Below are positions 3,508 to 49,484 of a stretch of DNA of 64,000 bases, in pieces. Origin of the DNA: Gammaproteobacteria bacterium (GTDB lineage: Bacteria; Pseudomonadota; Gammaproteobacteria; SZUA-229). The stretch is from NCBI GenBank assembly GCA_032251315.1, contig JAVVEE010000001.1:50035-114034 (forward strand), written 5' to 3'. Numbering within the stretch: position 1 is the first letter of the stretch; each line of letters starts with the position of its first letter. Under the pieces are notes generated by a model that saw only the letters and a program-made list of their open reading frames with translations, was not told where the DNA came from and searched no databases. The position numbers and the translations under genes were made by a program.

Positions 3508-3522
3508 CGCGTGGAGCGAGAT

Positions 3523-12814: not shown

Positions 12815-12827
12815 TCCTTTTTCAATT

Positions 12828-12895
12828 TTCTGAGGAGCGCTGCAGCGATACCCCCTATCGCGAGGCTCAGAACTAGACAACGGCGCTCATTTCTT
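12828..12895 (+). ncRNA. SAH (S-adenosylhomocysteine) riboswitch in the ahcY 5' leader
   Basis: Sequence CUGAGGAGCGCUGCAGCGAUACCCCCUAUCGCGAGGCUCAGAACUAGACAACGGCGCUCA matches the SAH-riboswitch consensus: GAGGAGCGCUGC with an AACGGCGCUC pseudoknot partner, P1 CUGAGG/GCUCAG and P2 GCGAUA/UAUCGC. It sits directly upstream of ahcY. Confidence 0.7.
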
Positions 12896-22317: not shown

Positions 22318-24375
22318 TTAGGCCTGGTGCTCAAGCACAACTGTTTCAACATTATCATCTTCAACCGATGGTAACTTAAAGCCGGATACTGAACGCCGCA
22401 GTTCGCTCGACAATACATTCAGCGTATCCAGCGAGGTAGAGGTTTCCTCGGTACCTTCTGATGTTTGCAGGGTAATTTCCTGAATAACATTCATGGTTTT
22501 CGATACGTTCGAGGCAACGTCCAACTGTTTTTGTGTCGCATCGGAAATTGCCTGAATTCGTTTTGAGAGCTGCAAGGATACATCCTCAATTTCTTTCAGC
22601 GCGACGCCCGCATCCTCGGCCATCTCAGCCCCGCTAACAACACCTGCGGTACTGACTTCCATTGATTTCACCGCTTCATTGGTATCCGCCTGAATGGTAT
22701 TAACCAGACCTTCAATCTGTTTGGTCGCATTACCCGCACGTTCCGCCAGTCGCTGCACCTCATCCGCAACCACCGCGAAACCACGACCTGCGTCACCTGC
22801 GGTCGAAGCCTGAATCGCTGCGTTCAAGGCGAGAATATTGGTTTGATCCGCAATTTCAGTAATCAGCCCCACGATGTCGCCAATTTCCTGGGAAGATTCA
22901 CCGAGTCGTTTAATACGTTTTGATGTTTCCTGAATCTGCTCACGAATCTTATCCATGCTGCTAATGGTGCTGTGCACCACACCTGCACCTTTCTGCGCAA
23001 TGGCTAGCGACTGCTGCGCTACGTTGGCTGAATCCTGTGCGTCTTTGGTTACATGTTCCATTGATTCGGCCATATCGCTCATCGCGGCACTGGCTGAGGC
23101 AATTTCCCGTGCCTGTCGCGTCGAAGCCTGCGCCAGCCCGGACGCTGTTGCCTGTGTTTTTTCCGTTGAAGAAGAGACCTCTACGGCGGTCGAGTTAATG
23201 GTTGTTACTAGTGACCGCAAGGCATCAATAGTAAAGTTCACCGAATCCGCAATCGCACCGGTAATTTCTTCTGTCACCGTGGCATGTGCGGTCAAATCAC
23301 CATCCGCCAGACTGGCCATTTCATCCAGCAAGCGCAGAATAGCGCGCTGATTACGACGGTTATTTTCCAGCGCCGACTCTTCACGTTTGCGCGCCTCTTT
23401 CAGTAGTAACCAGCCCAGAAATATAATCAGAATTACTGCGACACCGCCAAAGCCAACACCCAGCAGCTGAACTTCGTCCAGCGCCTCACCCTGATCAGAA
23501 ATTTGCTGTTCAAGCCCCTGAAGGTCATTTAACAGAACCTGACTATCACCGCTGATTTCACTGGCCGCATCCTTGATTTCAAACAACTCCGGCGACAGCT
23601 CAAGAATACCCGCAATATTATCGCCGACCACCGCAATTAGCATGGCGACCTCGCGCAGCTTGGCGACCGCTTCTTTGTCAGTAACCGCGTCTATTCCCAG
23701 CGCCTTTGAGCCTTTTAAAAGCCCCTCCAGTACCCGACCGAATAATGCTGCATCCCTGCCAAATCGATCCGCAGCCGCGGCCGCGGCCTCGCCGCCGATA
23801 AGAACATTATTAAGATTATTCTTGATACGCTGAGAGAGCATCATCTGACGACTGGCCAGATAGATCTGCCGGCTTGACGCATTTTTCTGCATCAAAATGC
23901 CCACCACTTCATCAGAATAGGTCAACATTTGAGGCGTGAAGCTGTCAATAATCTGATACAGCTCACGCACTTCTGAAATCGTCTCTTTACCGCCCAGAAT
24001 AATACCGGTATCTTTTTGATAGGCACCCCAGCTGGTTTCTACCTCTGTGAGTGCTGGAGACAAATTCGATGATAATGGAGGCGCTTCGGCACCGCCTCGA
24101 CGGTACAGGGATAAGACTTCATCAAAGCGCAACATACCTTCAGACAAAGCTTCGAAATCCGCCTCATTGCCCGATGAAGCACCGATGGCGAAGTTAGCCA
24201 TTCGCTGTGAAAGCAGTAGCTGCTCTGCGGACAGACTAAGGTGCTTTTGTAGATCGGCGCGTTTATAACCCACATAAACCAAACTCACCAACATGAAAAG
24301 AATCATCAGGCCCAGAATGACACCCAGCACCAGCGAAGGATTACCAATAGCTGATCTTTTTTTATTTGAACTCAT
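22318..24375 (-). CDS. pilJ: Methyl-accepting chemotaxis protein PilJ
   Basis: 685 aa; N-terminal TM, periplasmic domain, second TM, HAMP and a highly conserved MCP signalling domain (…[33 protein letters not shown]…). Confidence 0.9.
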
Positions 24376-30461: not shown

Positions 30462-31490
30462 ATGGTCAATAAAGCAAGCCGACCCACCGATTCCCTGATC
30501 GGGCACGATGCCTGGAATATCCAGCTGGACGAAAATGGCCGGCTCAAACATTTTCTCACCGTTGAAGGGCTGAGCACGGAGCTGCTTGTCAGCATCCTCG
30601 ACACCGCCGAAAGTTTCGCCAACATCAATGCCCAGAGCGTTAAAAAAGTACCTCTGCTGCGAGGCAAAACCATCGCCAACCTGTTCTTCGAAGCCAGCAC
30701 CCGAACCCGCAACACCTTCGAGCTGGCGGCTAAACGTCTCTCTGCTGACGTGCTCAACGTCAACATCAGCACCTCGGCGACCAGCAAGGGCGAAATCCTG
30801 ATGGATACCCTGCAAAATTTGCAGGCCATGCAATGCGACATGTTCGTGGTCAGGCATAACGCCTCCGGTGCCGCCCACTATATCGCCAACCGGGTGGCAC
30901 CGGGCATCAGCGTTATCAACGCCGGTGACGGCAGCCATGCCCATCCCACGCAGGCGATGCTGGATATGTTCACCATCCGCCGTAACAAGGGCAATGATTT
31001 CGGTCGACTGCGCGTGGCGATCATCGGTGATGTGCTGCACTCGCGCGTGGCCCGCTCCCAGATCCATGCGCTCAATATCCTGAACACCGGCAACGTTCGC
31101 GTTATCGCCCCCAAAACTCTGGTGCCAGCGGGCATCGAAGACATGGGGGTCGAACTGTTTCATGACATGGAAGCCGGTCTTCGTGATGCCGATGTGGTGA
31201 TCGCACTACGCTTGCAGAAAGAGCGCATGCAGGGCGCGCTCCTGCCCAGTGAGCAAGAATATTATCGAATGTACGGTCTCACCCGGGAACGGCTGCGCCT
31301 GGCCAAACCCGATGCCATTGTGATGCATCCCGGGCCGATCAATCGCGGCGTGGAAATCGAATCCTGCGTCGCCGATGGTCCGCAATCGGTCATTCTCGAG
31401 CAGGTTACCAACGGCATCTCCATCCGCATGGCGGTAATGTCGATGGCGCTGGGACGCGACCCCGGCACTGTCCAGAGTGAAAAAGCATGA
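30462..31490 (+). CDS. pyrB: Aspartate carbamoyltransferase catalytic subunit
   Basis: 342 aa; carbamoyl-phosphate binding STRTR and …HPTQAMLD… motifs. Confidence 0.9.
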
Positions 31491-32770
31491 ACCGACTTCT
31501 GATCAAAAACGGCCAACTTCTCGACCCCGCCAGCGGGCTCAATGCGCGCGGCGATCTCTACATCGAGAATGGCTGCATTGCCGCCATCGATACCGCGCCG
31601 GAAAATTTCAGTGCGGATCAGACCATTGACGCCGAAGGGCTCACCGTCATTCCCGGCCTGGTCGATCTGTGTGCGCGCCTGCGTGAACCGGGCTATGAAT
31701 ACAAAGCCACCATCGAGAGCGAAACCATCGCCGCGGCCATGTCCGGCATCACCACGCTGTGCTGCCCGCCCGACACCGATCCGGTTATCGACGAACCGGC
31801 GGTGGTTGAGCTGATCAATCACAAAACCGCCCACGCCGGCCACAGCAATGTACTCATGCTGGGCGCGCTCACCACCGGTCTGAGAGGTGAACTGCTGAGC
31901 GAAATGCAGGCACTGAAAGTCGCCGGCTGTGTCGGGCTGAGCAATGGCAGACATCCGATCGCCAGCACGCTGGTACTGAAGCGCGCTTTTGCCTATGCGG
32001 CCAACTGCGGTTTAACCGTTTTTATCGAGCCCGATGACCACTGGCTGAGCGCCGGCGGCTGCGCCCACGAAGGCACCATTGCCAGCCGCCTCGGCCTGAA
32101 GGGCATTCCGGTTTCCGCCGAAACCGTGGCCCTCGCCCGAGCGCTGGAAATTGTCGCCGAAACCGGCGTTAAGGCACATTTTGGACGACTTTCCTGTGCC
32201 GCCAGCGTCAACATGATTCGTCACGCCAAGGATAACGGCCTGAATATCACTGCTGATGTCAGCGCGCATCAGCTGCACCTCACTGAATTTGACATCAGCG
32301 GCTTCAACAGCGCCTGCCATGTGCTGCCGCCACTGCGTAGCCGGCGTGATCAGGAGGCGCTGCAACGCGGACTTGCCGATGGCACGCTGGATGCCATCTG
32401 CTCCGACCACCAGCCCCACGAGCCGGACGCCAAAGAGGCTCCATTCGCCGGTACCGCGCCGGGCATCAGCGCGCTGGCGACACTGCTGCCACTGGCGGTG
32501 CGCCTGGCGGATCGGGGCATTGTCGATATTGAAACGGTGATTCGCGCCATTACTTCGGCACCGGCGGCTATTCTGGGCATAAACGCGGGTTCACTGGCGA
32601 CGGGTGCGAGCGCGGATATCTGCATATTCAACCGCGATGCCGGCTGGCAGCTGGATGCATCCAGCCTCCACGGCGCCGGCAAGAACTCGCCTTTTATGGG
32701 CTGGGATTTTCAAACCCGGGCGGAACATACCATTGCCGCCGGCATCCTCATTCACAGCCGCGCCGACTGA
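31487..32770 (+). CDS. pyrC: Dihydroorotase-like protein (PyrC'-type)
   Basis: 427 aa amidohydrolase fold; pyrR-pyrB-pyrC' order as in Pseudomonas; overlaps pyrB stop. Confidence 0.8.
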
Positions 32771-32828: not shown

Positions 32829-33968
32829 TCAGGATTTTTTCTCATTCGCTGGCAAACTGCTGGGGAATTGCAGGGTGTCCGAGGTCTCACTTGAGCCCTT
32901 CGATTCCACCCCGCCGCCAAAATTGATCTTCCATTCGAGATCGCTGCTGGAATCCGCATTGGCCAGTGCGACCTTGAGATCAATTCGATCCTGCTTATAC
33001 AGCTGATACAGCGACTGATCAAAAGTTTGCATGCCGGCCTCACCGCTTTTCTCCATGGCGGCTTTAATGCTGTGAAAATCACCCTGGCGAATCAGACTGG
33101 CAATATAGGGCGTGTTGATCATGACCTCCACCGCCGCCACGCGCGTACCATCAAGCGAGGGCACCAGACGTTGCGCCAGAATGCCATTCAGATTGAGCGA
33201 CAGATCCATCAATATCTGGTTGTGCGCATCATTCGGAAAAAAGTTCAGAATACGATCCAGAGTTTGGTTGGCGTTAGTGGCGTGCAGGGTCGTCAGGCAG
33301 AGATGGCCGGTATCGGCATAGCGCAGCGCCGCCTGCAAGCCGTTGCGGTCACGGGCCTCACCCAGCATAATTACATCGGGCGTTTCACGCATGGCTTCGC
33401 GCAATGCGTTATCGAAGGAGAGCGTATCCAGCCCGATCTCCCGTTGCCCCACCACCGACTTTTTGTGCCGAAACATAAACTCAATCGGATCTTCGATAGT
33501 CAGAATATGCCCGGTTTCATTGCCGTTGCGATAGTCAATCATGGACGCCAGCGAGGTCGACTTACCCATGCCCGTGGCACCCACCACCAACACCAGCCCT
33601 TTTTTCCGGCTGATCATGGTTTTGTACAGATCGGGCAGACCCAGATCTTTCAGCGTTGGAATATCCGAACGGATATAACGGATCACCATCGAGACTTCAC
33701 CGCGCTGCATGTAGACATTAACGCGGAAGCGTCCGAGATCGGTGTAGGACATGCCCAGATTCATCTCCAGATTCTTTTCAAAATCCTGAATCTGGGCCGG
33801 TGTCAGCAGGTCATAGGCCAGCTTCTTGGTCATGCCGGGCGTCAGCATACTCTTGCCGACCGGGCGCATGGTGCCTTCAATGCGAATACTCACCGGCGCA
33901 CCGGTGGTGAAATAGAGATCCGAAGCCTGCTGTTCGGACATCAGTTTAAGATACGGCTGTAGATTCAT
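32829..33968 (-). CDS. PilT/PilU-family pilus retraction ATPase, divergent PilU-like paralog (third in a tandem array)
   Basis: 379 aa; atypical Walker A GATGMGKST; Walker B DVIMLGEARD; His-box GHLCLTTLHATNANQ; more divergent than the adjacent PilU. Confidence 0.8.
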   Translation of the reverse strand: MNLQPYLKLMSEQQASDLYFTTGAPVSIRIEGTMRPVGKSMLTPGMTKKLAYDLLTPAQIQDFEKNLEMNLGMSYTDLGRFRVNVYMQRGEVSMVIRYIRSDIPTLKDLGLPDLYKTMISRKKGLVLVVGATGMGKSTSLASMIDYRNGNETGHILTIEDPIEFMFRHKKSVVGQREIGLDTLSFDNALREAMRETPDVIMLGEARDRNGLQAALRYADTGHLCLTTLHATNANQTLDRILNFFPNDAHNQILMDLSLNLNGILAQRLVPSLDGTRVAAVEVMINTPYIASLIRQGDFHSIKAAMEKSGEAGMQTFDQSLYQLYKQDRIDLKVALANADSSSDLEWKINFGGGVESKGSSETSDTLQFPSSLPANEKKS

Positions 33969-33989
33969 TAACGCAACTCCCGCAGCCGA

Positions 33990-35162
33990 CTACCTGAGTC
34001 GGCCCGCTGATTGTTCAGATGGGTCTTCCGCCATTTGCAGCTTGTCCAGTCCGCTCATCAGATCCTCTTTTTTGGAACCCTTGCCTTCCAGCTTGAACTT
34101 CAGCCTCAGGTCGTTCAACGAATCGGCATTGCGCAGGGCGTCTTCATAGCTGATCTTGCCCGCTTCACTCAAAGTGAACAGGGCCTGATCAAAGGTCTGC
34201 ATGCCCTGTTCATTGGACTTGGAGATCAGCTCTTTCATTTCGTGAACCTGCCCCTTGAAAATCAGATCTGCCATGAACGGGGTATTGATCATGACCTCTA
34301 CCGCTGCGATGCGTCCTTCTCCGGAAATGGAGGGGATCAGTCGCTGCGAGATCAGGCTCTTCAGGTTCAGGGAGAGGTCCATCAGTAACTGCTGACGACG
34401 CTCCTCGGGGAAAAAGTTGATAATGCGATCCAGCGCCTGATTGGTGCTGTTGGCGTGCAGGGTTGACAGGCACAGATGCCCGGTCTCGGCGAAGGCAACC
34501 GCATATTCCATGGTCTGGCGATCACGAATTTCACCAATCAGAATCACATCCGGTGCCTGACGCAGGGTATTCTTCAGCGCCACTTCATAACTCTCGGTAT
34601 CCACGCCCACTTCGCGCTGGGTGACAATGCAGTTACGATGGTTATGGACAAACTCGATAGGATCCTCGATGGTGATGATATGGCCTTTGCTGTTCTCATT
34701 GCGGTATCCCACCATGGCGGCCAGCGAGGTCGACTTACCGGAACCGGTCGCCCCCACAAAAATTACCAGACCACGTTTGGTCATGGCGATCTCTTTCAAT
34801 ACCGGCGGCAGGTTCAGCTCGTCAAATTCGGGAATGTCCGACTGGATTCTGCGCAGCACCACGCCCACCGAACCGCGCTGAGCAAAGGCGTTGACACGGA
34901 AGCGGGAGACACCCGGCAGACTGATGGCAAAATTACATTCCTGCGTGGCTTCAAATTCGGTGGACTGCTTGTCGTTCATGAGCGAGCGCACCAGCATCTG
35001 GGTATGCTGCGGACTCAATGCCTGATTAGACAGAGATTCCATAGCACCATCAACCTTAATCGATGGCGTCGCCCCCGCGGTGACGAACAGATCCGAGCCG
35101 CCTTTCTGCACCATGGTGCGTAGAAGATCGTGCATATATCGTATAGCTTTATCGCGATCCAT
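33990..35162 (-). CDS. pilU: Type IV pilus ATPase PilU
   Basis: 390 aa; near-identical motif spacing to P. aeruginosa PilU (…KRGLVIFVGATGSGKSTSLAAM…GHLCLSTLHAN…); the start may be the internal Met at 35135. Confidence 0.9.
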   Translation of the reverse strand: MDRDKAIRYMHDLLRTMVQKGGSDLFVTAGATPSIKVDGAMESLSNQALSPQHTQMLVRSLMNDKQSTEFEATQECNFAISLPGVSRFRVNAFAQRGSVGVVLRRIQSDIPEFDELNLPPVLKEIAMTKRGLVIFVGATGSGKSTSLAAMVGYRNENSKGHIITIEDPIEFVHNHRNCIVTQREVGVDTESYEVALKNTLRQAPDVILIGEIRDRQTMEYAVAFAETGHLCLSTLHANSTNQALDRIINFFPEERRQQLLMDLSLNLKSLISQRLIPSISGEGRIAAVEVMINTPFMADLIFKGQVHEMKELISKSNEQGMQTFDQALFTLSEAGKISYEDALRNADSLNDLRLKFKLEGKGSKKEDLMSGLDKLQMAEDPSEQSAGRLR

Positions 35163-35212
35163 CTTAGAGATTACCTCATGTTTTTTTGTTTAACCAGGCG
35201 TGCGACAGCCTC

Positions 35213-36247
35213 CTAGAAATTATCCTTGTTCGCCGCTTTCTTTCTGGCTTCGTCTTTATTGATCAAGCCTTTTGACAGCAGCTCCTGCAGGTTCTGGTCC
35301 AGGGTCTGCATGCCGATCGACTGCCCGGTCTGAATCGCCGAATACATCTGGGCGATTTTATTCTCTCGAATCAGGTTGCGAATCGCCGGCGTGCCAATCA
35401 TGATTTCGTGCGCCGCGATGCGACCGCCACCCACTTTCTTCAACAGGGTCTGGGAAATAACCGCCCGCAAAGATTCGGACATCATGGCTCGCACCATCTC
35501 CTTCTCTGCTGCCGGGAACACGTCCACGATACGGTCAACGGTTTTTGCGGCTGAACTGGTATGCAGCGTACCGAAGACCAGATGCCCGGTCTCCGCTGCC
35601 GACAATGCCAGCCCGATGGTTTCAAGATCGCGCATTTCGCCCACCAGAATCACATCAGGATCTTCACGCAAAGCTGAACGTAACGCATCGGCAAAACCGA
35701 GTGTATCACGATGCACCTCACGCTGATTGATCAGCGATTTTTTGCTTTCATGCACAAACTCAATGGGATCTTCAATGGTCAAAATGTGGCCATAGTGGTT
35801 TTCGTTAACATAGTTGACCATGCCCGCCAGTGTGGTCGATTTTCCCGATCCTGTCGGCCCGGTCACCAGCACGATGCCACGCGGGGTATTGGAGATATCT
35901 TCAAAAATCTTCGGCGCGCCCAGCTCTTCCAGAGACAGAATTTTGGAGGGAATGGTACGAAAAACCGCACCCGCGCCCCGGTTATGATTAAAGGCGTTGA
36001 CACGAAAACGGGCCAGTCCGGGAATCTCGAACGAGAAGTCGGTTTCCCAGTACTCCTCAAAGGTCTTGCGCTGTTTATCGTTCATGATGTCATACACCAT
36101 GCTGTGAACGTCTTCGTGCTCCATCAGATCAACATTAATACGTCTGACATCACCATCGACACGGATCATCGGTGGCAGGCCTGCCGACAGGTGTAAGTCA
36201 GAGGCCCCGTTTTTGACACTGAATGCCAGAAGTTGTGCAATATCCAT
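35213..36247 (-). CDS. pilT: Type IV pilus retraction ATPase PilT
   Basis: 344 aa; nearly collinear with PilT of Pseudomonas (MDIAQLLAFSVKNGASDLHLSAGLPPMIRVDGD…GPTGSGKSTTLAGM…AIRNLIRE…). Confidence 0.95.
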   Translation of the reverse strand: MDIAQLLAFSVKNGASDLHLSAGLPPMIRVDGDVRRINVDLMEHEDVHSMVYDIMNDKQRKTFEEYWETDFSFEIPGLARFRVNAFNHNRGAGAVFRTIPSKILSLEELGAPKIFEDISNTPRGIVLVTGPTGSGKSTTLAGMVNYVNENHYGHILTIEDPIEFVHESKKSLINQREVHRDTLGFADALRSALREDPDVILVGEMRDLETIGLALSAAETGHLVFGTLHTSSAAKTVDRIVDVFPAAEKEMVRAMMSESLRAVISQTLLKKVGGGRIAAHEIMIGTPAIRNLIRENKIAQMYSAIQTGQSIGMQTLDQNLQELLSKGLINKDEARKKAANKDNF

Positions 36248-36485
36248 CAATTCCCCCGGATGTTTCTATTTTCTTTTAGTGACCCGATCAGCATGGCTGA
36301 ATCAGATCGGATCGCTGAATGTGTATACCCTACTACTTATAGCCAATAAATCTCCGCCCTTCACGTTATTTAACGGTCTTTATCGGAAAATCTTTTATCA
36401 TCGGCTAATGCGGTTTCGCTGGCTATGTTAGAATTTTCATTTAAACAAGCACTTACTAACCTGCATCGGAACTGAAATTAATCAA

Positions 36486-37319
36486 ATGAGCACATCAATC
36501 GCTTTTATTGGTGGTGGCAACATGGCCACCAGCCTGATCGGAGGCCTGATATCGTCCTCAGCGTCGGCGGCGAGCATCATGGTGGCTGAACCGGACCAGG
36601 TACAGCGCAGCCGTTTGCAGCAGCAGTTTGCTGTTCACACCACTGCGGATAACAGCGACACGCTCAATGCCGACGTAGTGATACTGGCGGTCAAACCTCA
36701 ACTGTTGCAAATAGTGTGCCGAGCACTCCGCGAAACGCTCAACCAGTCCGCTCGGCAACCCCTGTTTATCTCCATTGCCGCCGGTGTCCGCAGTGACGAC
36801 ATCGATCGCTGGCTGGGAGGCGATCGCGTTATTGTGCGCGCCATGCCCAACACCCCCTCCCTGCTGGCTTCGGGTGCCACCGGGCTTTATGCCAACCCGC
36901 GCGTGAGCGCCGCCCAGAAAACAGTGGCGGAAACCATTCTGCACGCTGTCGGCATAACGCTATGGGTCGACAAAGAGGACGAGCTGGATGCGGTGACCGC
37001 GGTCTCGGGGAGCGGCCCGGCCTATTTTTTCCTGCTGATGGAAGCCATGCAGCAGGCGGGCGTCAGGCTGGGTCTGGCCCCTGAAACCGCTGAAAAACTG
37101 GTTATCCAGACCGCGCTGGGTGCCGCGCAGATGGCCGAACATAGGGAACTGGATGTCGCCACCTTGCGCGCCCAGGTCACCTCCAAAGGCGGCACCACCG
37201 AACAGGCCATCAACCATTTTCAGCAGGCTGGTTTCGAACAGCTGGTGGAGAGTGCCATGCAGGCGGCCTATGACCGCTCCCGAATTTTGGCTAACGAACT
37301 GGGTAAAGATCAATCATGA
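36486..37319 (+). CDS. proC: Pyrroline-5-carboxylate reductase
   Basis: 277 aa; Rossmann IAFIGGGNMA… and ProC C-terminal dimerisation domain. Confidence 0.9.
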   Translation: MSTSIAFIGGGNMATSLIGGLISSSASAASIMVAEPDQVQRSRLQQQFAVHTTADNSDTLNADVVILAVKPQLLQIVCRALRETLNQSARQPLFISIAAGVRSDDIDRWLGGDRVIVRAMPNTPSLLASGATGLYANPRVSAAQKTVAETILHAVGITLWVDKEDELDAVTAVSGSGPAYFFLLMEAMQQAGVRLGLAPETAEKLVIQTALGAAQMAEHRELDVATLRAQVTSKGGTTEQAINHFQQAGFEQLVESAMQAAYDRSRILANELGKDQS

Positions 37320-40081: not shown

Positions 40082-40990
40082 ATGACCCGAACTTTTAACC
40101 AGTTATTCACTCACAGCGAGCAGTTGCAACCGCTGTTAAAACGCCTGCCCGTGGTGATCAATTTCCTGCTGATTATCGCCTGCGCGCAGCTGCTCTCGCA
40201 GGGCATCTGGATGCTGCTGGCTGAACCTGAATCTGAATTTTTCGCTGCCACCCCCTCGGCGAATTCGGGCACAGACAAAAACGCTGACAATGCCCAAAAA
40301 TCACAGCAGCAGGCTTTCCGCAGCCTGACCAGCGCTCATCTGTTCGGTGTTGCCCAAAATCAAGGCCCCCAGATGAGCGCTGAAAAAGCCCCCGATACAA
40401 AACTCAATCTGGTTTTGAGAGGCATCCTCACTGCAGGTGAAACGCAAATGGCCAGCGCCATTATCGCGCGGGGCGCCAACGGTCAGGAAGAGATCTACGG
40501 CATCGACGATAAAATGCCGGGGGGTATAACGCTCAGAGAGATCCACGCCCAACACGTCATTATCGAACGCCAGGGCCAGCTAGAAACCCTGCGCATGGAG
40601 AAAGACGAGGGTGATGACCTGATCTCCGCCCCAGTGGGCAGACCGCAGTCGTCCACTTCAACCATGTCCGCACTTGCCTCACAAAAAATAAAAAACATTC
40701 GCCGTGAACTGATCAGTAACCCGACCTCGTTCAGCAAGTACGCCCTGCCGGTCGTGGTCAGGGAAAATGGCGTACAGGTGGGCTATCGACTGCAACCCCA
40801 GCAAAACAGTGACCTGCTCAGGCAGGCGGGACTTGAAGCCTCCGATGTGATTACTTCGGTCAATGGCGTCAGCCTCAACGACATGAACAACAGCATTAGT
40901 GCCTTGAGAGAGCTGAGCTCAGCCAGCCAGGTCAACATTATCGTGAAACGTAATGGCGTCGAGATTCCCCTTAATATTCAGCTACAATAA
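40082..40990 (+). CDS. gspC: Type II secretion system protein C (PDZ domain)
   Basis: 302 aa; N-terminal TM, HR region and C-terminal PDZ (…GYRLQPQQNSDLLRQAGLEASDVITSVNGVSLND…); immediately upstream of gspD. Confidence 0.75.
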   Translation: MTRTFNQLFTHSEQLQPLLKRLPVVINFLLIIACAQLLSQGIWMLLAEPESEFFAATPSANSGTDKNADNAQKSQQQAFRSLTSAHLFGVAQNQGPQMSAEKAPDTKLNLVLRGILTAGETQMASAIIARGANGQEEIYGIDDKMPGGITLREIHAQHVIIERQGQLETLRMEKDEGDDLISAPVGRPQSSTSTMSALASQKIKNIRRELISNPTSFSKYALPVVVRENGVQVGYRLQPQQNSDLLRQAGLEASDVITSVNGVSLNDMNNSISALRELSSASQVNIIVKRNGVEIPLNIQLQ

Positions 40991-41027
40991 ACATTTTGGA
41001 TACACAAAAAGCAACAGGATTCTATGC

Positions 41028-43076
41028 ATGACCCGTTTAAGAATTAGCTCCGCCAGAGCACGACTGCCCGGCATCACCAGCAGCTTTATTTTATTGCTGC
41101 TGTTCAGCTTTTCGGCAATGGCGAATGAGATCACGCTCAACCTTAAAGATGCCGATATTCGAGCGCTGATCAGCACGGTTTCAAAATTCACCGGCAAGAA
41201 CTTCATCATCGACCCGCGTATCAAGGCCAAGGTGACGGTGGTCTCCGCCAACACCATGTCGCCGGATGAGGTCTACGAAGTTTTCCTTTCGGTGCTGCAG
41301 GTACACGGTTTCGCCGCCGTGCCGACTGGCTCGGTGATAAAAATCATTCCCGAGGTCAATGCCAAGCAGAGCGCCGTCCCCCTGTCAGTCAATGGCAAAC
41401 AGCTTGCCGATGACGAGCTGATCACCAAACTGATCCGCATGGATCATGTACCGGCGGCGCAACTGGTACCCATCCTGAGACCCCTGGTGCCGCAGCAGGG
41501 CCATCTGGCGGCTTATGCGCCCACCAACAGCCTGATCATTACCGACCGCGCCGGTAACATCGAGCGTCTGATGCAAATCATCGAGGGCGTTGATCGACCG
41601 GACACTGATGAGCTGGAAATCATTCCGCTCAAACATGCTTCGGCGACTGAGCTGGTGCGCATCGTCAACTCTCTGTACCAGACCAGCGGAGCCAAAAATG
41701 AGGCCAGTAAAATAAATATGGCCGCTGACGAGCGCACCAACAGCGTATTAATGTCGGGAGATCCCGCTGCGCGACTCAAGGCCCGTGCCACCATTGTTCA
41801 GCTGGATACCGCGCTGGAAACAGGTGGCGGCAATACCCACGTCATCTATCTCAAATATGCCGAGGCGGAAAATATGGTGCAGATCCTCACCGGCATTCAG
41901 AACGCGACATCTCAGTCACCGGGGACCAGAGGTTCGACGCCGGCGAGGGCTCCGGCAGCTGCCGCGAACGGTTCAACCGGCGTCTTTTCCCAGCTGGCGG
42001 ATATTCAGGCCGATAATGATACCAATGCGCTGATCATTACCGCCGACCCCAACACCCTGAAAAGCCTGAAGTCGGTTATCCGCCAGCTCGATATCCGCCG
42101 CGCTCAGGTGCTGATTGAAGCCATCATCGCCGAGATTACCGCCGGCAAAAGCCGCGAACTGGGCGTCGGCATGGCAGTCGACGGCTCACCCTCTGACGAT
42201 GATAATGTCCCGGTGGGCATGAGCAATTTCGGCGGCCTGGGTAATATTCTCGCCGCCGCCAGCGGTCTGACCACGGACCCCAGCTCTTTGCTGAGTCCCG
42301 GACTCACCCTCGGTGCCGGCAAGACCAGCAGCTCCGGCACCCGCTATGCGCTGCTGCTGCGGGCGCTGGCGACCGATGATTCCAGCAATATTCTCTCCAC
42401 CCCCAGCATCGTCACACTGGATAACGAAGAGGCCGAGATCATTGTGGGTGAAAATGTACCTTTCGTTACCGGCCAGTTCACCAACACCGGCAGCAGCGAT
42501 CCCAGCAACCCCTTCCAGACCATCGAGCGCCAGGATGTCGGCCTGACCCTGAGAGTCACGCCCCAGGTCAATGAGGGCGATACCATCAAGCTGGATCTGG
42601 AACAGGAGACCTCCAGCGTGATTCCCGGCAGTGAGGTCTCCGGCATTACCACCCGTAAACGTTCAATCAAAACCAGTGTGCTGGTGGATGATGGCGGTAT
42701 TCTGGTTCTGGGCGGCCTGATTCAGGAGACCATCAGCGAAGGCGAGAGCAAAGTTCCTCTGCTTGGTGATATCCCCCTGCTGGGCGCGCTGTTCAGATCC
42801 ACCTCCAGCAACAAGAGCAAACAGAACCTGATGGTTTTCCTACGCCCCAGCATTCTGCGCGATGATGCCGATGCGGCCTTTATCACCAATGAAAAATACA
42901 ATTACCTGCGCAGCCTGCAACTTCAGCCTGAAAAAGGCATAGCGGATGATGACACTCCGCTGCTGGAGCCCCTGAAGCCGGCGACGATTGATAAAGGCGA
43001 AGCCAAAAACCGACAAGAGGACCCCGTCAAAAACCAAAATGATTTTGAATGGGATGATGATGACCAATATTTCTGA
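41028..43076 (+). CDS. gspD: Type II secretion system secretin GspD
   Basis: Start at in-frame ATG (MTRLRISSARARLPGITSSFILLLLFSFSAMA signal peptide); N0-N3 domains; secretin core (…VLGGLIQETISEGESKVPLLGDIPLLGALF…) and S-domain. Confidence 0.9.
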   Translation: MTRLRISSARARLPGITSSFILLLLFSFSAMANEITLNLKDADIRALISTVSKFTGKNFIIDPRIKAKVTVVSANTMSPDEVYEVFLSVLQVHGFAAVPTGSVIKIIPEVNAKQSAVPLSVNGKQLADDELITKLIRMDHVPAAQLVPILRPLVPQQGHLAAYAPTNSLIITDRAGNIERLMQIIEGVDRPDTDELEIIPLKHASATELVRIVNSLYQTSGAKNEASKINMAADERTNSVLMSGDPAARLKARATIVQLDTALETGGGNTHVIYLKYAEAENMVQILTGIQNATSQSPGTRGSTPARAPAAAANGSTGVFSQLADIQADNDTNALIITADPNTLKSLKSVIRQLDIRRAQVLIEAIIAEITAGKSRELGVGMAVDGSPSDDDNVPVGMSNFGGLGNILAAASGLTTDPSSLLSPGLTLGAGKTSSSGTRYALLLRALATDDSSNILSTPSIVTLDNEEAEIIVGENVPFVTGQFTNTGSSDPSNPFQTIERQDVGLTLRVTPQVNEGDTIKLDLEQETSSVIPGSEVSGITTRKRSIKTSVLVDDGGILVLGGLIQETISEGESKVPLLGDIPLLGALFRSTSSNKSKQNLMVFLRPSILRDDADAAFITNEKYNYLRSLQLQPEKGIADDDTPLLEPLKPATIDKGEAKNRQEDPVKNQNDFEWDDDDQYF

Positions 43077-44571
43077 AGCCGCTGAAATCTCCCATGAGGT
43101 CTTAACGCCGCAACGGCTGCCTTATGCCTTCGCCAAGCGCCACGGTGTGTTGATCGGCCAGATAACCGATGATCAGGTTCAGATTCTGCATCGCGAGGAT
43201 TTCAGCCCGCTGATTCTGGCCGAAGTCAAACGCGCCACCGGCCGTAAGCTCAATCTGGCGCCGGCCTCCAACGAACAGTTCGCCGCGCTGCTGGCCCAGA
43301 CTTACGAGCAGGGCAGCGATCAGGCCATGGCCATGATGCAGGGCGTGGGTGATGAGCTCAACCTCGATGAGCTGGCCGGTTCACTGGAGCCGGAAGATCT
43401 GATGGAAGCGGATGATGATGCGCCCATTATTCGCCTGATCAATGCCCTGCTCACCGAAGCCATCAAGATCGATGCCTCAGATATTCATATTGAACCCTTT
43501 GAAAGCAAAATGCGCATACGCTTTCGCGTCGATGGTCTGCTGCGCGAGATACTGCAACCGCCCAGCAACATTGCACCGCTGGTGATTTCGCGCATCAAGG
43601 TCATGGCGAAAATGGATATCGCTGAAAAACGCCTGCCCCAGGATGGCCGCATCTCTCTGCGGGTTGCCGGGCGCTCGGTCGATGTCCGCGTCTCCACCCT
43701 GCCCTCGGGCTACGGCGAGCGGGTGGTGATGCGTCTGCTCGACAAACAGGCCGGGCGTATGGATCTGGAACAGCTGGGCATGGCCGAAGCCACCCGCGAC
43801 ACTTTCGACCAGCTATTACACAAGCCGCACGGCATTATTCTGGTCACCGGCCCGACCGGTTCGGGTAAAACCACCACGCTGTACGCCGGGCTGACCCGTC
43901 TCAACGTCAAGTCGCGCAACATTCTCACTGTCGAAGACCCTATTGAGTATTACATCTACGGCATCGGCCAGACCCAGGTCAACACCAAGGTCGACATGAG
44001 TTTTGCACGCGGCCTGCGCTCTATTCTGCGGCAGGATCCTGACGTGGTCATGATCGGTGAAATTCGCGACCTCGAAACCGCTTCGATTGCCGTGCAGGCC
44101 AGTCTGACCGGCCATCTGGTGATGTCCACGCTGCATACCAACACTGCCATCGGCGCCATCACCCGCCTGCGCGACATGGGTGTCGAACCTTTCCTGCTGG
44201 CTTCCAGTCTGGTGGGCGTGCTGGCACAACGGCTGGTGCGCAACCTCTGCCCCAACTGCCGAAAACCCCATGTTGCCAGCGACTCCGAGCGCCAGTGGCT
44301 GGGCATGAAAGCCGATGATATCACTCATATCTATACCGCCGAGGGCTGTGAAGCCTGCAACTATCAGGGCTATGCAGGCCGTAGCGGCCTGTATGAACTG
44401 GTCCCCATTGACGACACCCTGCTGGCTATGATTCACGACGGTGCCAGTGAACACGACATGGAAAAATATGCCCGCACCAAATCGCCCAGCCTGCGCCAGG
44501 ACGGGCGACGCATGATCCTGAAGGGCATCACCTCGCTGGAAGAGGTTATCCGGGTGAGTCGTGAAGATTAA
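43054..44571 (+). CDS. gspE: Type II secretion ATPase GspE
   Basis: Walker A GPTGSGKTT; tetracysteine CPNC…CEAC; N1E domain. Start is ambiguous among in-frame ATGs at 43039-43060, all overlapping the gspD 3' end. Confidence 0.9.
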   Translation: MMMTNISEAAEISHEVLTPQRLPYAFAKRHGVLIGQITDDQVQILHREDFSPLILAEVKRATGRKLNLAPASNEQFAALLAQTYEQGSDQAMAMMQGVGDELNLDELAGSLEPEDLMEADDDAPIIRLINALLTEAIKIDASDIHIEPFESKMRIRFRVDGLLREILQPPSNIAPLVISRIKVMAKMDIAEKRLPQDGRISLRVAGRSVDVRVSTLPSGYGERVVMRLLDKQAGRMDLEQLGMAEATRDTFDQLLHKPHGIILVTGPTGSGKTTTLYAGLTRLNVKSRNILTVEDPIEYYIYGIGQTQVNTKVDMSFARGLRSILRQDPDVVMIGEIRDLETASIAVQASLTGHLVMSTLHTNTAIGAITRLRDMGVEPFLLASSLVGVLAQRLVRNLCPNCRKPHVASDSERQWLGMKADDITHIYTAEGCEACNYQGYAGRSGLYELVPIDDTLLAMIHDGASEHDMEKYARTKSPSLRQDGRRMILKGITSLEEVIRVSRED

Positions 44572-44588
44572 TTCTGTGCGAGTAGATT

Positions 44589-45824
44589 ATGGCCGCCTTT
44601 GAATATATAGCGCTGGATAGCAGAGGCAGGGAGAAAAGGGGTGTCATCGAAGCCGACACCGCCCGGCAGGCACGCCAGCTTCTGCGCGATCAGGACCTGA
44701 CGCCACTGCAGATGGAAAACACCAAGGCATCGGAAAAGAAATCGAGCAAGACAGCTTCGTCACTGCATCAAATCAAGCTTTTTCAGCGCGGCATCAACTC
44801 CACCGAGCTGGCCCTGCTCACCCGGCAACTGGCCACGCTGATACAGGCGGCCCTGCCGTTGGAAGAATCGCTCTCGGCGGTGGCCAACCAGTCCGATAAA
44901 CCGCGCATCAAAAGCATGATGTACGCGATTCGCTCGAAGGTGCTGGAAGGCCATACCCTGGCCGCCGGACTGGCCGATTTCCCCAAGGTTTTCTCGCCCC
45001 TGTTCTGCGCCACCATCGATGCCGGCGAGAAATCCGGCCACCTCGATACCGTGCTGGAGCGGCTGGCCGACTACACCGAAACCCGGCAGGAGCTACAGAG
45101 CAAAGTCAGTCAGGCCATGATTTATCCCGTCTTTCTCACCGGCTTCGCCGTACTCATCGTCGGCTTCCTGATGGCCTATGTGGTGCCGCAGGTGGTGGCG
45201 GTATTCGAGGACATTGGCGAGGAGCTGCCCGGCCTGACGCTAGGGCTGATCAGCATCAGTGACTTCGTGGTCAACTTTGGCGTGTATGCTGTTTTCATAC
45301 TGATAGCGCTGATCATCGGCCTGAAAGTGCTGCTGCAGAAACCCCGCTATCAGGAGCGTTATCACCGCCTGTTGCTCAGGCTGCCACTCATACAGAAGCT
45401 GGTTCGTGGCCTGAATACCGCCCAGTTCACCCGCACTTTCAGTATTCTTTCCGGCAGCGGCGTAGCGGTACTGGAGGCGATGAAAATTTCGGCTCAGGTG
45501 GTCAGCAATCTGCCCCTGCGCAATGCCATCCTCGATGCCACTGACCGGGTCCGTGAAGGCAGCGGCATCAGCAAGTCAATGGCCAGCAGCCGGCTGTTCC
45601 CCCCTATCACCCTGCAGCTCATTGCCAGCGGTGAAAACAGCGGCAAGCTGGATGAGATGCTGCACCGCGCCTCCACTCAGCTGGAGCGTGAACAGGTCAC
45701 CCTGATCGCCTTCATCGTCGGCATCATGGAGCCGCTGATTATCAGCGTCATGGGGCTGCTGGTGTTACTGATTGTGCTTGGCATTCTGCTGCCCATTTTT
45801 GACCTGAACCAGCTGGTGAAATAA
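44589..45824 (+). CDS. gspF: Type II secretion inner-membrane platform protein GspF
   Basis: 411 aa; two GspF/PilC repeats; three TM. Confidence 0.9.
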   Translation: MAAFEYIALDSRGREKRGVIEADTARQARQLLRDQDLTPLQMENTKASEKKSSKTASSLHQIKLFQRGINSTELALLTRQLATLIQAALPLEESLSAVANQSDKPRIKSMMYAIRSKVLEGHTLAAGLADFPKVFSPLFCATIDAGEKSGHLDTVLERLADYTETRQELQSKVSQAMIYPVFLTGFAVLIVGFLMAYVVPQVVAVFEDIGEELPGLTLGLISISDFVVNFGVYAVFILIALIIGLKVLLQKPRYQERYHRLLLRLPLIQKLVRGLNTAQFTRTFSILSGSGVAVLEAMKISAQVVSNLPLRNAILDATDRVREGSGISKSMASSRLFPPITLQLIASGENSGKLDEMLHRASTQLEREQVTLIAFIVGIMEPLIISVMGLLVLLIVLGILLPIFDLNQLVK

Positions 45825-46400
45825 CCCCAACAGCAGCGCAGACACGCCCCCGCCTACGGCGCCATACAGATGCGCATCGGTGACCACGCGACCTGCGGCA
45901 AGCTCCTCCGAACCCGGCAGCGCACCGTACATGAGCTCCCAGAGCAACTTGCCCACCAGCAGAGCCATGAGCGCATAACCACTGGCGGGATAGAAACGTA
46001 TTTCGCGCACAGTGCCGTAAATGAACAGCCCATGCAGGATACCGGAGAGACCGACATAGGTGCTGACCTGCGGATTAAACCAGTACAGGCCGACGCCGAC
46101 AAACATTGCCGAGACCAGCATCACCAGCAACCAGTGAAAAACAGCGCCATAACTGCTGAAAAAAAAGGCCACAATCCCCAGACCGGCCATATTTAATCCC
46201 CAGTGCGCCCAGTTCAGATGTACTATGTTGCCGCTCAGCAGCAGCCAGTAGTGGCCCTGCTTGATCAGCTGTAGATCATAACGCCAGCCGGGTACCTGGC
46301 CACTGGCCTGCAAATAGGCGCTCAGCAGCAACACCAGCAACCACAGGCCATGGCTCCAGTGCATAGAAAGACGGTTTTGCATAGGCAGTTCGAGACGCAT
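45765..46400 (-). CDS. Rhomboid-family intramembrane serine protease, rhombosortase-like (about 211 aa, 6 TM)
   Basis: Rhomboid signatures: HLNWAHWGLNMAGL (TM2 H-x-x-x-N), GLSGILHG (GxSGxxxG catalytic Ser), AHLYGAVGG (catalytic His). Size is typical of rhombosortase. Antisense between gspF and gspG, with the 3' end overlapping gspF by 60 nt. Confidence 0.7.
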   Translation of the reverse strand: MRLELPMQNRLSMHWSHGLWLLVLLLSAYLQASGQVPGWRYDLQLIKQGHYWLLLSGNIVHLNWAHWGLNMAGLGIVAFFFSSYGAVFHWLLVMLVSAMFVGVGLYWFNPQVSTYVGLSGILHGLFIYGTVREIRFYPASGYALMALLVGKLLWELMYGALPGSEELAAGRVVTDAHLYGAVGGGVSALLLGLFHQLVQVKNGQQNAKHNQ

Positions 46401-46471
46401 TTGTTATCATTCCAACATTTATCAAGTGTGAACTTAAAAAGCTGGACGAACTCTAACGGGTTGCGTTACAA

Positions 46472-46954
46472 GTGGCAAAATATTATTCATCAGGAGTCAA
46501 AAGTTTGAAATCACAAATCAATATTCTCAAATCATACCAGCAGGGTTTTACCCTGATAGAACTGATGGTGGTGATTGTCATCCTTGGCATTCTGGCCGGG
46601 GTTGTAGTTCCTAAAATCATGGATAATCCGGATAAGGCGCGCGTCGCCAAGGCCAAACACGATATCTCCGCGCTGGGAAGCGCCCTGGATGTTTACCGTC
46701 TGGATAATTATTTCTACCCCACCACCGATCAGGGGCTGGAAGCACTGGTCAGCCAGCCCAGCGGCAATCCTGAACCGGCCAACTGGAAAGCCGGCGGCTA
46801 CATTAAGAAGCTGAACAAAGATCCCTGGGGCAACGATTACCTGTACCTGAGTCCGGGGCAACACGGTGAGCTCGATATTTATTCACTGGGCGCCGATGGT
46901 GCACCTGGCGGTGAAGGCGTATCCGCCGATATCGGTTCATGGGAAATTGAATAA
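46472..46954 (+). CDS. gspG: Type II secretion major pseudopilin GspG
   Basis: …[26 protein letters not shown]… prepilin-type N-terminus. The alternative TTG start at 46505 with AGGAG 8 nt upstream would give a 14-aa leader instead of 25. Confidence 0.9.
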
Positions 46955-46980
46955 CCCAAAACTCAATTCACGTGTTTGCA

Positions 46981-47519
46981 ATGAAGGTTCGAGCAGGGTA
47001 AATGGATTTACCCTGCTCGAACTGATGATTGTTCTGGTCATTGTTTCGATCCTTTTCACCTTTGTCTCATTCACCATTCGCGGCCATTCCCCCGAAGAGT
47101 CAATGGCGGAAGAGGCGCGTCGACTTGATCGCCTGGTACAACTGGTGCTGGAAGAGGCGGTGCTGAAAAACACCGAATACGGGCTTGAATTCAAACGCCA
47201 CAGTTACCGCTTTCTGAGCTACGAAGACGAGCAGTGGCGCGCTGTTAGCGGCGACCGCCTGCTGCGCGAACGGCAGCTGCCCAACGAGATGGAGATCGAA
47301 CTGGCCATCGAGCAACTGGATGTCGTCATCGGGGAGCCCTCTGAACAAAATGACAGCGAGCGCACAGAGGAGGAGCTCAAACCCCAGGTCTTCCTGCTCT
47401 CCAGCGAAGAGATTACGCCTGAATTCACCGTCTATTTCAGCATTCGCGGCATCGCCACCGGTTATCAGGTCAGCGGCAGCATCGACGGCAAACACGAGGC
47501 CAGGCAGAGTGATTTTTAA
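46981..47519 (+). CDS. gspH: Type II secretion minor pseudopilin GspH, with an apparent 1-nt deletion or frameshift at the 5' end
   Basis: The mature part (…VNG|FTLLELMIVLVIVSILF…) is in frame 0 but has no in-frame start codon. ATG at 46981 in the +1 frame gives MKVRAG then TAA. Adding one G to the GGG run at 46996-46998 yields MKVRAGVNGFTLLE…. Confidence 0.6.
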
Positions 47520-47904
47520 ACGCCCCCCTCACACCTTTAACCGACACCGTAACGGCGGCTTCACGCTGATCGAGGTGCTGATCGCGCTCACCATTATCGC
47601 CATTTCGCTGGGCGCGCTGATGAGCGCTTCGGGCAATCAGGCCTACCAGACCGGCTACCTGAAACAGAAAACCCTGGCCCACTGGGTGGCCATGAACGAG
47701 ATGACCCAGCTGCAACTGGAGGAGGAATGGCCGGCGCTGGGTGAACGCAAGGGCAGTTCAGAGATGGCCGGTGCCGAATGGTTCTGGCTGCGCACGGTGA
47801 AAGAGACGCAGGATGACAATGCCCGCGGGGTTGAACTAGAGGTGTTTGCCGACAAAAACCACAAACAGAACCTGACCCGTTTAATGGGCTATGTGAACAG
47901 ATAA
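47509..47904 (+). CDS. gspI: Type II secretion minor pseudopilin GspI
   Basis: GTG start overlapping gspH stop; leader MIFKRPPHTFNRHRNGG|FTLIEVLIALTIIAISLGAL. Confidence 0.8.
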   Translation: MIFKRPPHTFNRHRNGGFTLIEVLIALTIIAISLGALMSASGNQAYQTGYLKQKTLAHWVAMNEMTQLQLEEEWPALGERKGSSEMAGAEWFWLRTVKETQDDNARGVELEVFADKNHKQNLTRLMGYVNR

Positions 47905-48546
47905 ATGCAGCCGCGCCCAACTCATTCTCTACAGGCCAAACGTTCCTCCTGCCGTGGCTTTACCCTGATCGAACTGCTGATCGCCATCGCCGTGTTCTCG
48001 GTCATGTCGGTGATGGCCTACGGTGGCCTCAGTCAGATTATTCAGAACAGCAGCCACTCAAAACTGGAGTTGCAACGCTTACAGTCGATTCAACGCGCGG
48101 TGCTCAGCATCAGCCGGGATCTCACCCAGGTGATCGAACGTGATATTCGCGATGAATACGGCAACACTCAGCCTTTTTTTGCGGCCGGCAACAGCATTGA
48201 TTACCTGCTCGAGTTTACCCGCAACGGGCGACGCAATCCGGCCGGATTGCAGCGCAGCCATCTGTTGCGCGTCGCCTATCAGCACGAGGATGGAAAGCTG
48301 TTGCGCCTGTTCTGGCCCCAGCTCGACCGGGCGCAAGGCATGGAGCCCTACGAAAGCATTCTGCTGGAGCAGGTGACGGCGGTGGAGTTACGTTACCGCG
48401 ATGATGCCGGAGAGTGGCATTCGACATGGCCGCCGCTCAATGCTCAACAGGCCGGGGATAATCCATCCCGACTCAGCGCCATTGAGTTCACCCTGGAGCT
48501 GGAAAACTGGGGTGAGATCAGCCGGCTTTATCAGGTGGGCGGCTGA
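47905..48546 (+). CDS. gspJ: Type II secretion minor pseudopilin GspJ
   Basis: 213 aa; …SSCRG|FTLIELLIAIAVFSVMSVMAYGGL…. Confidence 0.85.
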   Translation: MQPRPTHSLQAKRSSCRGFTLIELLIAIAVFSVMSVMAYGGLSQIIQNSSHSKLELQRLQSIQRAVLSISRDLTQVIERDIRDEYGNTQPFFAAGNSIDYLLEFTRNGRRNPAGLQRSHLLRVAYQHEDGKLLRLFWPQLDRAQGMEPYESILLEQVTAVELRYRDDAGEWHSTWPPLNAQQAGDNPSRLSAIEFTLELENWGEISRLYQVGG

Positions 48547-49484
48547 TGAGATTACCTGCTGCACAGAAAGGCGTGGCTCTGATCACGGCGCTGCTGATTG
48601 TTGCTCTGGCTGCCGTGATCAGCGTTGAGCTGAGCATGCGCTTGCAGCTGGACATCCGCCGCTCCGGCAATGTCATCGCCAGCGACCAGGCCCTGCTCTA
48701 CCTGAAACATGCAGAATACTATGCCCGCCGTACTTTAAAAGAAGATCGCCTGGACAATAATTATGATTCTCTGGATGAAGACTGGGCTATGGAACTGCCC
48801 CCCTTTCCGGTCGAAGGCGGCAGCGTTTTGGGCAGGCTGACCGACCTGCAGGGCTGCTTCAATCTGAATTCGCTATATTACAACGAGCAGCCGAATGCCC
48901 TCGCCCAGCAACGCTTTAACCGCCTGATGCAACGCCTTCCCAGCCCGCCGGTCACGGATCTTTCTCAGGCCATTATCGACTGGATCGATGCCAATCCCGA
49001 CACCACCCTGCCCGATGGCGCGGAAGATAGCTACTACCTCAATCAGGAGCGGCCTTACCGCAGTGCCGGCCAGCCGTTACTGAGCCTGAGCGAGTTACGC
49101 CTGATCAAAGGTTTTACCGATGGCGAGATCATGCAGCGAAGCGAAAGTTTTCTGTGTGCCTTTGGCCCGCCTGCGGATATCAACGTCAACACAGCGCCGG
49201 CAGAAGTGCTAGAATCGCTGGCAGCCAATATTAGCACTGCGATGGTCGCAGACATCATCGTTCAAAGGCAGACTAATCCTTCCCAGACAATGCAAGAATT
49301 TCTGAGCGACTACAATCTTTCTACGGTCATCACCGATACCGCCGGACTCTCTGTCAGCAGCGATTATTTTCTACTGGAGAGCGAAGCCCGAATTGGTCAG
49401 GCCAGAACCCTGATGTACAGCATTATTCATCGCGAAAATAATGGCGACACGCAGGTAATAGCGCGTTCACAGGGGGCTTATTAG
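48546..49484 (+). CDS. gspK: Type II secretion minor pseudopilin GspK
   Basis: 312 aa; N-terminal …KGVALITALLIVALAAVISVELS… and GspK helix-hairpin-helix-like C-terminal domains. Confidence 0.85.
   Translation: MRLPAAQKGVALITALLIVALAAVISVELSMRLQLDIRRSGNVIASDQALLYLKHAEYYARRTLKEDRLDNNYDSLDEDWAMELPPFPVEGGSVLGRLTDLQGCFNLNSLYYNEQPNALAQQRFNRLMQRLPSPPVTDLSQAIIDWIDANPDTTLPDGAEDSYYLNQERPYRSAGQPLLSLSELRLIKGFTDGEIMQRSESFLCAFGPPADINVNTAPAEVLESLAANISTAMVADIIVQRQTNPSQTMQEFLSDYNLSTVITDTAGLSVSSDYFLLESEARIGQARTLMYSIIHRENNGDTQVIARSQGAY

Follow-up and report, generated by a model that had tools for sequence, protein, structure and literature searches.

In a 64,000-nt stretch of the genome of a Gammaproteobacteria bacterium of the GTDB lineage SZUA-229 (GCA_032251315.1), called here the window, the pilT and pilU genes for the retraction ATPases of the type IVa pilus (T4aP) are followed on the same strand by a third gene of the same family, which we term P3. 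From the open reading frame (ORF) list of the window, together with profile, homolog and structure comparisons, we found that P3 is an undescribed subfamily. It is an old and separate branch of the family, on the side of PilU, with a catalytic core that is probably active and a C-terminal arm unlike the one by which PilU docks on PilT, and it characterises an entire uncultured lineage rather than being an oddity of the window genome.

Identity of the three genes

An earlier note on this DNA, made from the letters alone, had described three tandem PilT-family genes, and its positions agree with the ORF listing, which has three consecutive minus-strand PilT/PilU-family ORFs at 35213-36250, 33990-35162 and 32829-33968. 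All three products exceed the curated cut-off of NCBIfam TIGR01420 (PilT/PilU; 319 bits) and match Pfam T2SSE (for P3, PF00437 at 143 bits). The first carries both the GPTGSGKST and the AIRNLIRE motif and is therefore PilT. Its listed start is a TTG at 36250 (345 aa); the next codon is an ATG (36247) that has GGGGGA 7 nt before it, and a start there yields a protein of 344 aa, as in the orthologs. The middle product scored 515 bits against Pseudomonas aeruginosa PilU (PDB 9n32), with which it also clustered in a neighbour-joining (NJ) tree, whereas P3 scored 391 bits, and thus the naming of the genes as pilT, pilU and a divergent PilU-like third, also put forward in the note, holds. Pairwise identities were 49% for PilU and P3, 43% for PilT and PilU, and 39% for PilT and P3.

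Lineage and catalytic residues of P3

By its motifs, P3 is not a PilT sensu stricto: it lacks AIRNLIRE, having PYIASLIRQGD (consensus PYIS.LIR.G) where PilT has PAIRNLIRENK, and it displays the PilU-type GATGMGKST and HLCLTTLHA, not the PilT-type GPTGSGKST and HLVFGTLHT. Nor is it of the GspE/PilB type, which is marked by N-terminal N1E/N2E domains and a zinc-binding CM motif, as the extension/secretion ATPase models TIGR02533 and TIGR02538 gave 106 and 105 bits (cut-offs of 630 and 676, respectively) in alignments limited to the ATPase core. In the clade, PilT and PilU can be told apart at 81 alignment columns, and P3 presents the PilU state in 35 of them, the PilT state in 14 and a state that is its own or variable in 32; moreover, 19 substitutions are fixed only in P3 (for example, H166F after the Asp box), and its identity with any PilU is about 50%. 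By the PilU matches and these discriminating columns, P3 is a lineage of its own within the PilU side of the PilT/PilU family.

The phylogeny showed P3 to be an old paralog rather than a recent copy. In the NJ tree (300 bootstraps), P3 never formed an exclusive clade with the PilU encoded beside it (0/300), and we rejected on these grounds a recent tandem duplication of pilU as its origin. P3 grouped instead with P0123, the most divergent protein with the P3 signature in a representative library of 1.8 billion proteins (59% identical), with 81% bootstrap, and it was the neighbouring pilU product, not P3, that grouped with P. aeruginosa PilU. A recent, disabled duplicate, one of the outcomes that the earlier note had named as refuting its view, is thereby discarded, the motifs being intact as well, while the tree does agree with an old PilU-like lineage.

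The AlphaFold2 model of P3 (mean predicted local distance difference test score, pLDDT, of 82) depicted the two-domain PilT fold. Its best PDB match in Foldseek was P. aeruginosa PilU (9n32), with a template modelling (TM) score of 0.82-0.89, and comparisons with PilU and PilT structures yielded TM scores of 0.8-0.9. Across 59-78 orthologous sequences, the Walker A K136, the Asp-box E159, D160 and E163, the Walker B E204 and the His-box H222 and H229 were invariant or nearly so, and the same was true of the N-domain arginines R80, R82 and R97. P3 is also under purifying selection: the ratio of nonsynonymous to synonymous substitution rates (dN/dS, Nei-Gojobori) in the closest pairs was 0.015-0.037 for P3, 0.022-0.040 for PilU and 0.010-0.027 for PilT, with dS near saturation, and only one of 78 copies (L078) looked truncated or frameshifted. 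Its divergence rate was 1.19 times that of PilU and 2.9 times that of PilT. With the Walker A and B, Asp and His boxes present, catalytic residues invariant and dN/dS values of about 0.02-0.04, P3 is probably an active ATPase, as the note had anticipated.

We found no such agreement for the Met in the Walker A, which had been taken as a meaningful peculiarity. Among P3 orthologs, position 134 is Met in 42, Ser in 18 and Thr in 16, and it is Thr in P. aeruginosa PilU. In the GxxGxGK(S/T) pattern this position corresponds to the free x, so that Met134 carries no evident meaning, and it was rejected as a functional signature.

The C-terminal arm

Teipen et al. (bioRxiv 10.1101/2025.10.30.685630) report that PilU stacks on PilT through a C-terminal arm, in which a Lys that they found in all PilU homologs (K348 in Vibrio cholerae, K351 in Acinetobacter baylyi) bridges PilT D2 and E/D53, and acidic residues downstream of this Lys contact PilT R35/K36. 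The equivalent Lys in P. aeruginosa PilU is K350. The PilT proteins of the clade keep the residues that receive PilU, D2, R35, R36 and D53 being near-invariant in 64 orthologs, and the PilU of the window keeps its side of the contact: K357 (LRLKFKLEG; the aligned P. aeruginosa segment is NDLRLMIKL) is Lys in 71 of 72 orthologs, and the docking segment is followed by the acidic tail DLMxGLDxhxMED.

In P3, the column of the docking Lys holds Asn in 75 of 78 orthologs and Arg in two. Around it, W346, N349, F350, G351 and G352 are invariant (alignment A2), and past this hinge a variable linker of 11-17 residues leads to a conserved (T/S)L(Q/E)FP(S/D). AlphaFold2 placed the last helix at residues 343-350 and predicted residues 352-379 to be disordered (pLDDT below 50). 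Thus, P3 resembles PilU in extending about 35 residues past the PilT end and in lacking AIRNLIRE, but it is not a PilU sensu stricto, as it has neither the conserved Lys nor orthology with a characterised PilU. The distinct C-terminus mentioned in the earlier note is confirmed by the Asn in place of the docking Lys, the LEWKINFGGG helix and hinge and the LQFP tail, and this arm of different chemistry is the real distinction between P3 and PilU.

The PilU of the window also displays a 7-residue N-terminal extension, MDR(D/E)KAI, ahead of (K/R)(Y/F)MHDLL. This extension is conserved in every triple-operon PilU, with L001-L078, L081 (after start correction), L082 and L084 among them; Pseudomonas-type PilUs are without it, and it is found neither in the pair-only loci L087 and L088 nor in 9n32. 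We considered it as a marker of the third gene or a docking site for its product, and rejected it after it had failed a blind test at P0162/L089. The PilU there carries the extension although no third gene follows, which makes the extension a lineage trait.

Distribution of the triple arrangement

A synteny scan with one genome per GTDB species yielded 80 loci, 77 of which encode the P3 C-terminal signature. In 64 the upstream sequence was sufficient for a judgement, and pilT, pilU and P3 were on one strand in all of them (64/64); two loci flagged as exceptions merely had an additional partial ATPase match at the locus edge. The flanks were also conserved, with a convergent pyrC' in 63 loci and a divergent proC in 60. 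The P3 orthologs were 57-98% identical to that of the window, and all carriers are uncultured Gammaproteobacteria, some of them labelled Thiotrichaceae or Thiotrichales. Homolog searches and a cluster look-up disclosed no named or cultured carrier, only proteins from metagenomes or metagenome-assembled genomes (MAGs), and the database labels on these homologs read only "PilT/PilU family" or "PilU". No lineage with pilT and P3 and no pilU was seen.

Similar triples exist in other lineages. The P0123 locus reads yggS-proC-yggT / T2SSE-T2SSE-T2SSE, and a short third gene (351-352 aa, product ending in NLE(A/S)KI(N/R)FG), of a family abundant in metagenomes, follows pilT-pilU in two more lineages (L082; L084-L086); the relatives L087, L088 and L089 have plain pilT-pilU pairs with no third gene. 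The idea that the arrangement was unusual must accordingly be abandoned, as the triple is the common state of the clade, in 64 of 64 informative loci, and has counterparts elsewhere, an outcome that the earlier note itself had listed among those that would refute it. Short-form third genes (P0140, P0146, P0151 and L082; 351-353 aa, uncultured Gammaproteobacteria) lie at the corresponding place (proC-yggT / pilT-pilU-third) and are 49-55% identical to P3. Their products end in NLE(S/A)(K/R)I(N/R)FG, which is like the DLEWKINFG of P3, but they stop right after FG and have no Gly3 hinge, tail or LQFP. The NJ support for a common origin of P3 and the short forms (38-47% bootstrap) is too low to settle it.

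Methylophilaceae matches (L079, L080) as well as P0125/P0127 were rejected as P3 members, being solitary genes with a PilU-like L(S/A)LK(M/I)RF C-terminus. Several variants were seen among the loci. In one MAG, pilU and P3 are set apart by a 1.1-kb insertion (L011, 2461-3588), which contains an ORF of 186 aa (2858-3418) without a known function; elsewhere this gap is of a few tens of nt. A P3 sub-clade of 442-451 aa (L056, L062, L064, L065, L066 and L070; gene starts at about 6001, or 5746 in L066) has an extra acidic C-terminal extension of about 70 residues that ends in a conserved Y(L/F)DRLKSVFG(D/E)Q. A second, short-tailed P3-signature gene (L073, 1090-2184; 364 aa, "...LEWKINFGADQSVS") on another contig of the MAG of L010 represents a second copy or else contamination of the bin. 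At the locus edge of L018 (29-502) and L021 (22-495), on the strand of pilT and some 3 kb upstream of it, there is an extra T2SSE-type ATPase core that is 41% identical to PilT residues 116-283. Finally, six proteins of the representative library (P0121, P0122, P0124, P0126, P0130 and P0131; 700-1000 aa) have two PilT-family stretches each; they probably stem from the fusion or read-through of tandem pilT-family genes, or from errors in gene calling.

Layout of the probable operon and genomic context

The features of the window are summarized in Table 1. The intergenic gaps are 50 nt between pilT and pilU and 21 nt between pilU and P3; the medians in the other loci are 59 nt and 40 nt, respectively, the linkage of P3 being found in 68 loci. 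The ATG of P3 has a GGGAG 8 nt upstream. In a promoter/terminator scan, no promoter- or terminator-like site was found in either gap, and the hits obtained were of consensus level only, inside coding sequence and no more numerous than expected by chance; an Rfam search gave no match in or near the three genes. From this layout, pilT, pilU and P3 likely constitute a single operon, the promoter of which is presumed to lie in the 236-nt pilT-proC intergenic region. In the window, no yggS (Ala_racemase_N) gene is present between pilT and proC (36251-36485); one is found at this place in L081, L082, L087 and L088.

Table 1. Features of the window: the probable pilT-pilU-P3 operon, segments of its products, and neighbouring genes
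Feature	Coordinates	Strand	Description
pilT	35213..36247	-	Primary ATPase of type IVa pilus retraction, 344 aa; TIGR01420 507 bits
pilU	33990..35162	-	Orthodox PilT-dependent accessory retraction ATPase, 390 aa; TIGR01420 469 bits
PilU N-terminal extension	35142..35162	-	Residues 1-7
PilU docking segment N350-G360	34083..34115	-	NDLRLKFKLEG; K357 equivalent to V. cholerae K348/A. baylyi K351
P3	32829..33968	-	Third paralog, of the PilU lineage, 379 aa; TIGR01420 427 bits
P3 Walker A G130-T138	33555..33581	-	GATGMGKST; G130, G133, G135, K136, S137 and T138 invariant
P3 last helix and hinge D343-G353	32910..32942	-	DLEWKINFGGG; N349 in the column of the PilU docking Lys
P3 tail motif T365-S370	32859..32876	-	TLQFPS; L366 and F368 at least 90% conserved (A2), linker around variable
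pyrC'	31487..32770	+	Convergent, downstream boundary of the operon; NF005791 537 bits
proC	36486..37319	+	Divergent, upstream boundary; TIGR00112 259 bits
pilMNOPQ	727..5748		
SAH riboswitch	12826..12895	+	RF01057, 60.6 bits (gathering score 37), directly upstream of ahcY
ahcY	12918..14342		Inside a metK-ahcY-metF block
CheA-like kinase	16543..22263	-	1906 aa, C-terminal receiver domain
MCP	22318..24375	-	Adjoins the CheA-like kinase
gsp cluster	40082..50728		Complete type II secretion cluster (gspC-L)

The convergent pyrC' expected after the third gene was indeed found, 58 nt from P3. Because it has DLCAR where catalytic dihydroorotases carry the metal-binding DxHxH (HxH) motif, this dihydroorotase-like gene is of the non-catalytic PyrC' type, the partner of PyrB in pseudomonads. 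On the other side, the operon is flanked by proC-yggT-yggU-metXW and then by the gsp genes for type II secretion (T2SS), 3.8 kb from pilT.

The window encodes one T4aP system (pilMNOPQ plus a Pil-Chp-like chemosensory block): the CheA-like kinase, the methyl-accepting chemotaxis protein (MCP) and pilMNOPQ are like the Pil-Chp region of Pseudomonas both in the genes present and in their order. Other genes present are gshB, a tonB-like gene, yqgE, ruvX and pyrR-pyrB-pyrC'. The layout mirrors the PA0392-PA0413 region of P. aeruginosa, with P3 as the insertion between pilU and pyrC'. Apart from the pilus genes, ahcY is preceded by an S-adenosylhomocysteine (SAH) riboswitch.

Possible role of P3 in pilus retraction

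By the explanation to which we give about an even chance, P3 is a PilU-lineage ATPase that is competent in catalysis, forms hexamers, belongs to the T4aP retraction module and is co-transcribed with pilT and pilU. It would work as a second accessory ATPase of the retraction type. PilT is proposed to seat on the PilC platform via AIRNLIRE; since P3, like PilU, is without this motif, it could probably not seat on PilC or drive retraction alone, and would act through PilT or the PilT-PilU stack. P3 has lost the Lys and acidic tail that clamp PilU to PilT and presents a Trp/Phe helix, a Gly3 hinge and a flexible LQFP tail in their place, and because of this replacement its recruitment probably takes place via a different contact. 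We infer in this way the hexamers, the dependence on PilT, the docking by the tail and an effect on retraction, whether extra force, speed or a condition-dependent tuning. Some observations weigh against this explanation: the deep placement of P3 in the PilU-like radiation reaches just 38-47% bootstrap by NJ; the members of the subfamily all come from uncultured MAGs; and, as our view was of the window only, P3 may serve a further type IV filament system whose genes lie outside it.

A rather unlikely alternative, although one with precedents, is that P3 forms a competing ring that takes the face of PilU on PilT under some conditions and acts as a gear shift or brake, altering the speed or force of retraction or damping it. 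The PilU-like core without AIRNLIRE and the conserved tail motif of its own are consistent with this, PilT paralogs that modulate retraction have been described (PMC6762196; PMC13584747), and the effect would resemble the modulation of speed reported for Neisseria PilT2. However, P3 does not have the Lys reported in all PilU homologs for PilT docking, and the locus scan disclosed no lineage in which P3 accompanies pilT in place of pilU.

We hold it to be less probable again that the motor has three tiers, the P3 ring docking on the cytoplasmic face of the PilU ring or on its sides (PilC-PilT-PilU-P3), one ring more than in the stack of two proposed for PilT-PilU. P3 is invariably accompanied by PilU, its gene always comes after pilU in the operon, it has no PilT-specific docking residues, and the 7-residue extension of the co-resident PilUs is at the position where PilT D2 receives the PilU arm; nevertheless, the PilU of P0162/L089 bears the extension with no third gene, so that the blind test spoke against this model. 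A three-component motor in which P3, recruited by the Trp/Phe helix and the tethered LQFP instead of a Lys clamp like that of PilU, would provide a third ring or exchange with PilU is, in our estimate, improbable; if true, it would mean a further "gear" of retraction force or speed beyond PilT-PilU.

That P3 powers another machine (the T2SS pseudopilus, or an MSHA-like or other pilus) and merely hitch-hikes in the pilT operon is very unlikely. V. cholerae PilT and PilU do serve two pilus systems (PMC6762196), and a complete gsp cluster is nearby. Yet this proximity is all that speaks for the T2SS or different-pilus role raised in the earlier note: P3 is always attached to pilT-pilU (median gap of 40 nt in 68 loci), and third genes occupy the same slot in L082 and L084-L086, with no gsp genes in the sequenced flanks. 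Moreover, the T2SS is not known to have a retraction ATPase. As for the idea that P3 is a tandem copy of pilU, redundant or in decay, which the tandem position and the 49% identity to PilU might bring to mind, it is effectively refuted by the conservation data (orthologs 57-98% identical, intact motifs, low dN/dS and a single broken-looking copy) and by the lack of any exclusive P3-PilU clade in the bootstraps.

Comparison with known systems and significance

P3 shares with the PilU proteins of P. aeruginosa, V. cholerae and A. baylyi the family and fold, the GATG-type Walker A, the lack of AIRNLIRE, the TGHLCL.TLHA His box, the NADS..DL segment, the C-terminal extension past the PilT end and a gene position downstream of pilT. 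It differs in that its gene is additional to an orthodox pilU, in the Asn that replaces the docking Lys and in the GGG-linker-LQFP that takes the place of the acidic tail motif. PilT2 of Neisseria has its gene at another place in the genome and resembles PilT, not PilU. Its likeness to P3, drawn by description only, is that of an extra PilT-family paralog beside PilT and PilU that is unable to replace PilT (PMC6762196). Myxococcus xanthus (PilU, MXAN_1995) also has several PilT-like ATPases, and the C-terminus of the accessory motor is disordered and proposed to be regulatory (PMC13584747), but this is a bacterium of another phylum, with no pilT-pilU-third operon and no C-terminal motif shown to be shared.

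Multiple PilT paralogs are well known, as in Geobacter, Neisseria (PilT2; PMC6762196) and Myxococcus (PMC13584747), and Denise et al. (PMC6668835) had already speculated that duplications of a rarer kind lead to additional specialisation. Our literature search found no description of the P3 subfamily or of a pilT-pilU-third operon. For annotation, this means that in these genomes the label "PilU" covers at least two non-equivalent proteins. The practical impact will be limited until a cultured or heterologous system exists. In the current view, forceful retraction is the work of two stacked motors, PilT and PilU, joined by the C-terminal arm of PilU. A large group of environmental Gammaproteobacteria keeps, in the same operon and under strong selection, a third motor-like ATPase in which this arm has been rebuilt, and P3 is therefore a natural experiment on the recognition between rings and on whether a retraction motor can have more than two components, be it for extension or for tuning.

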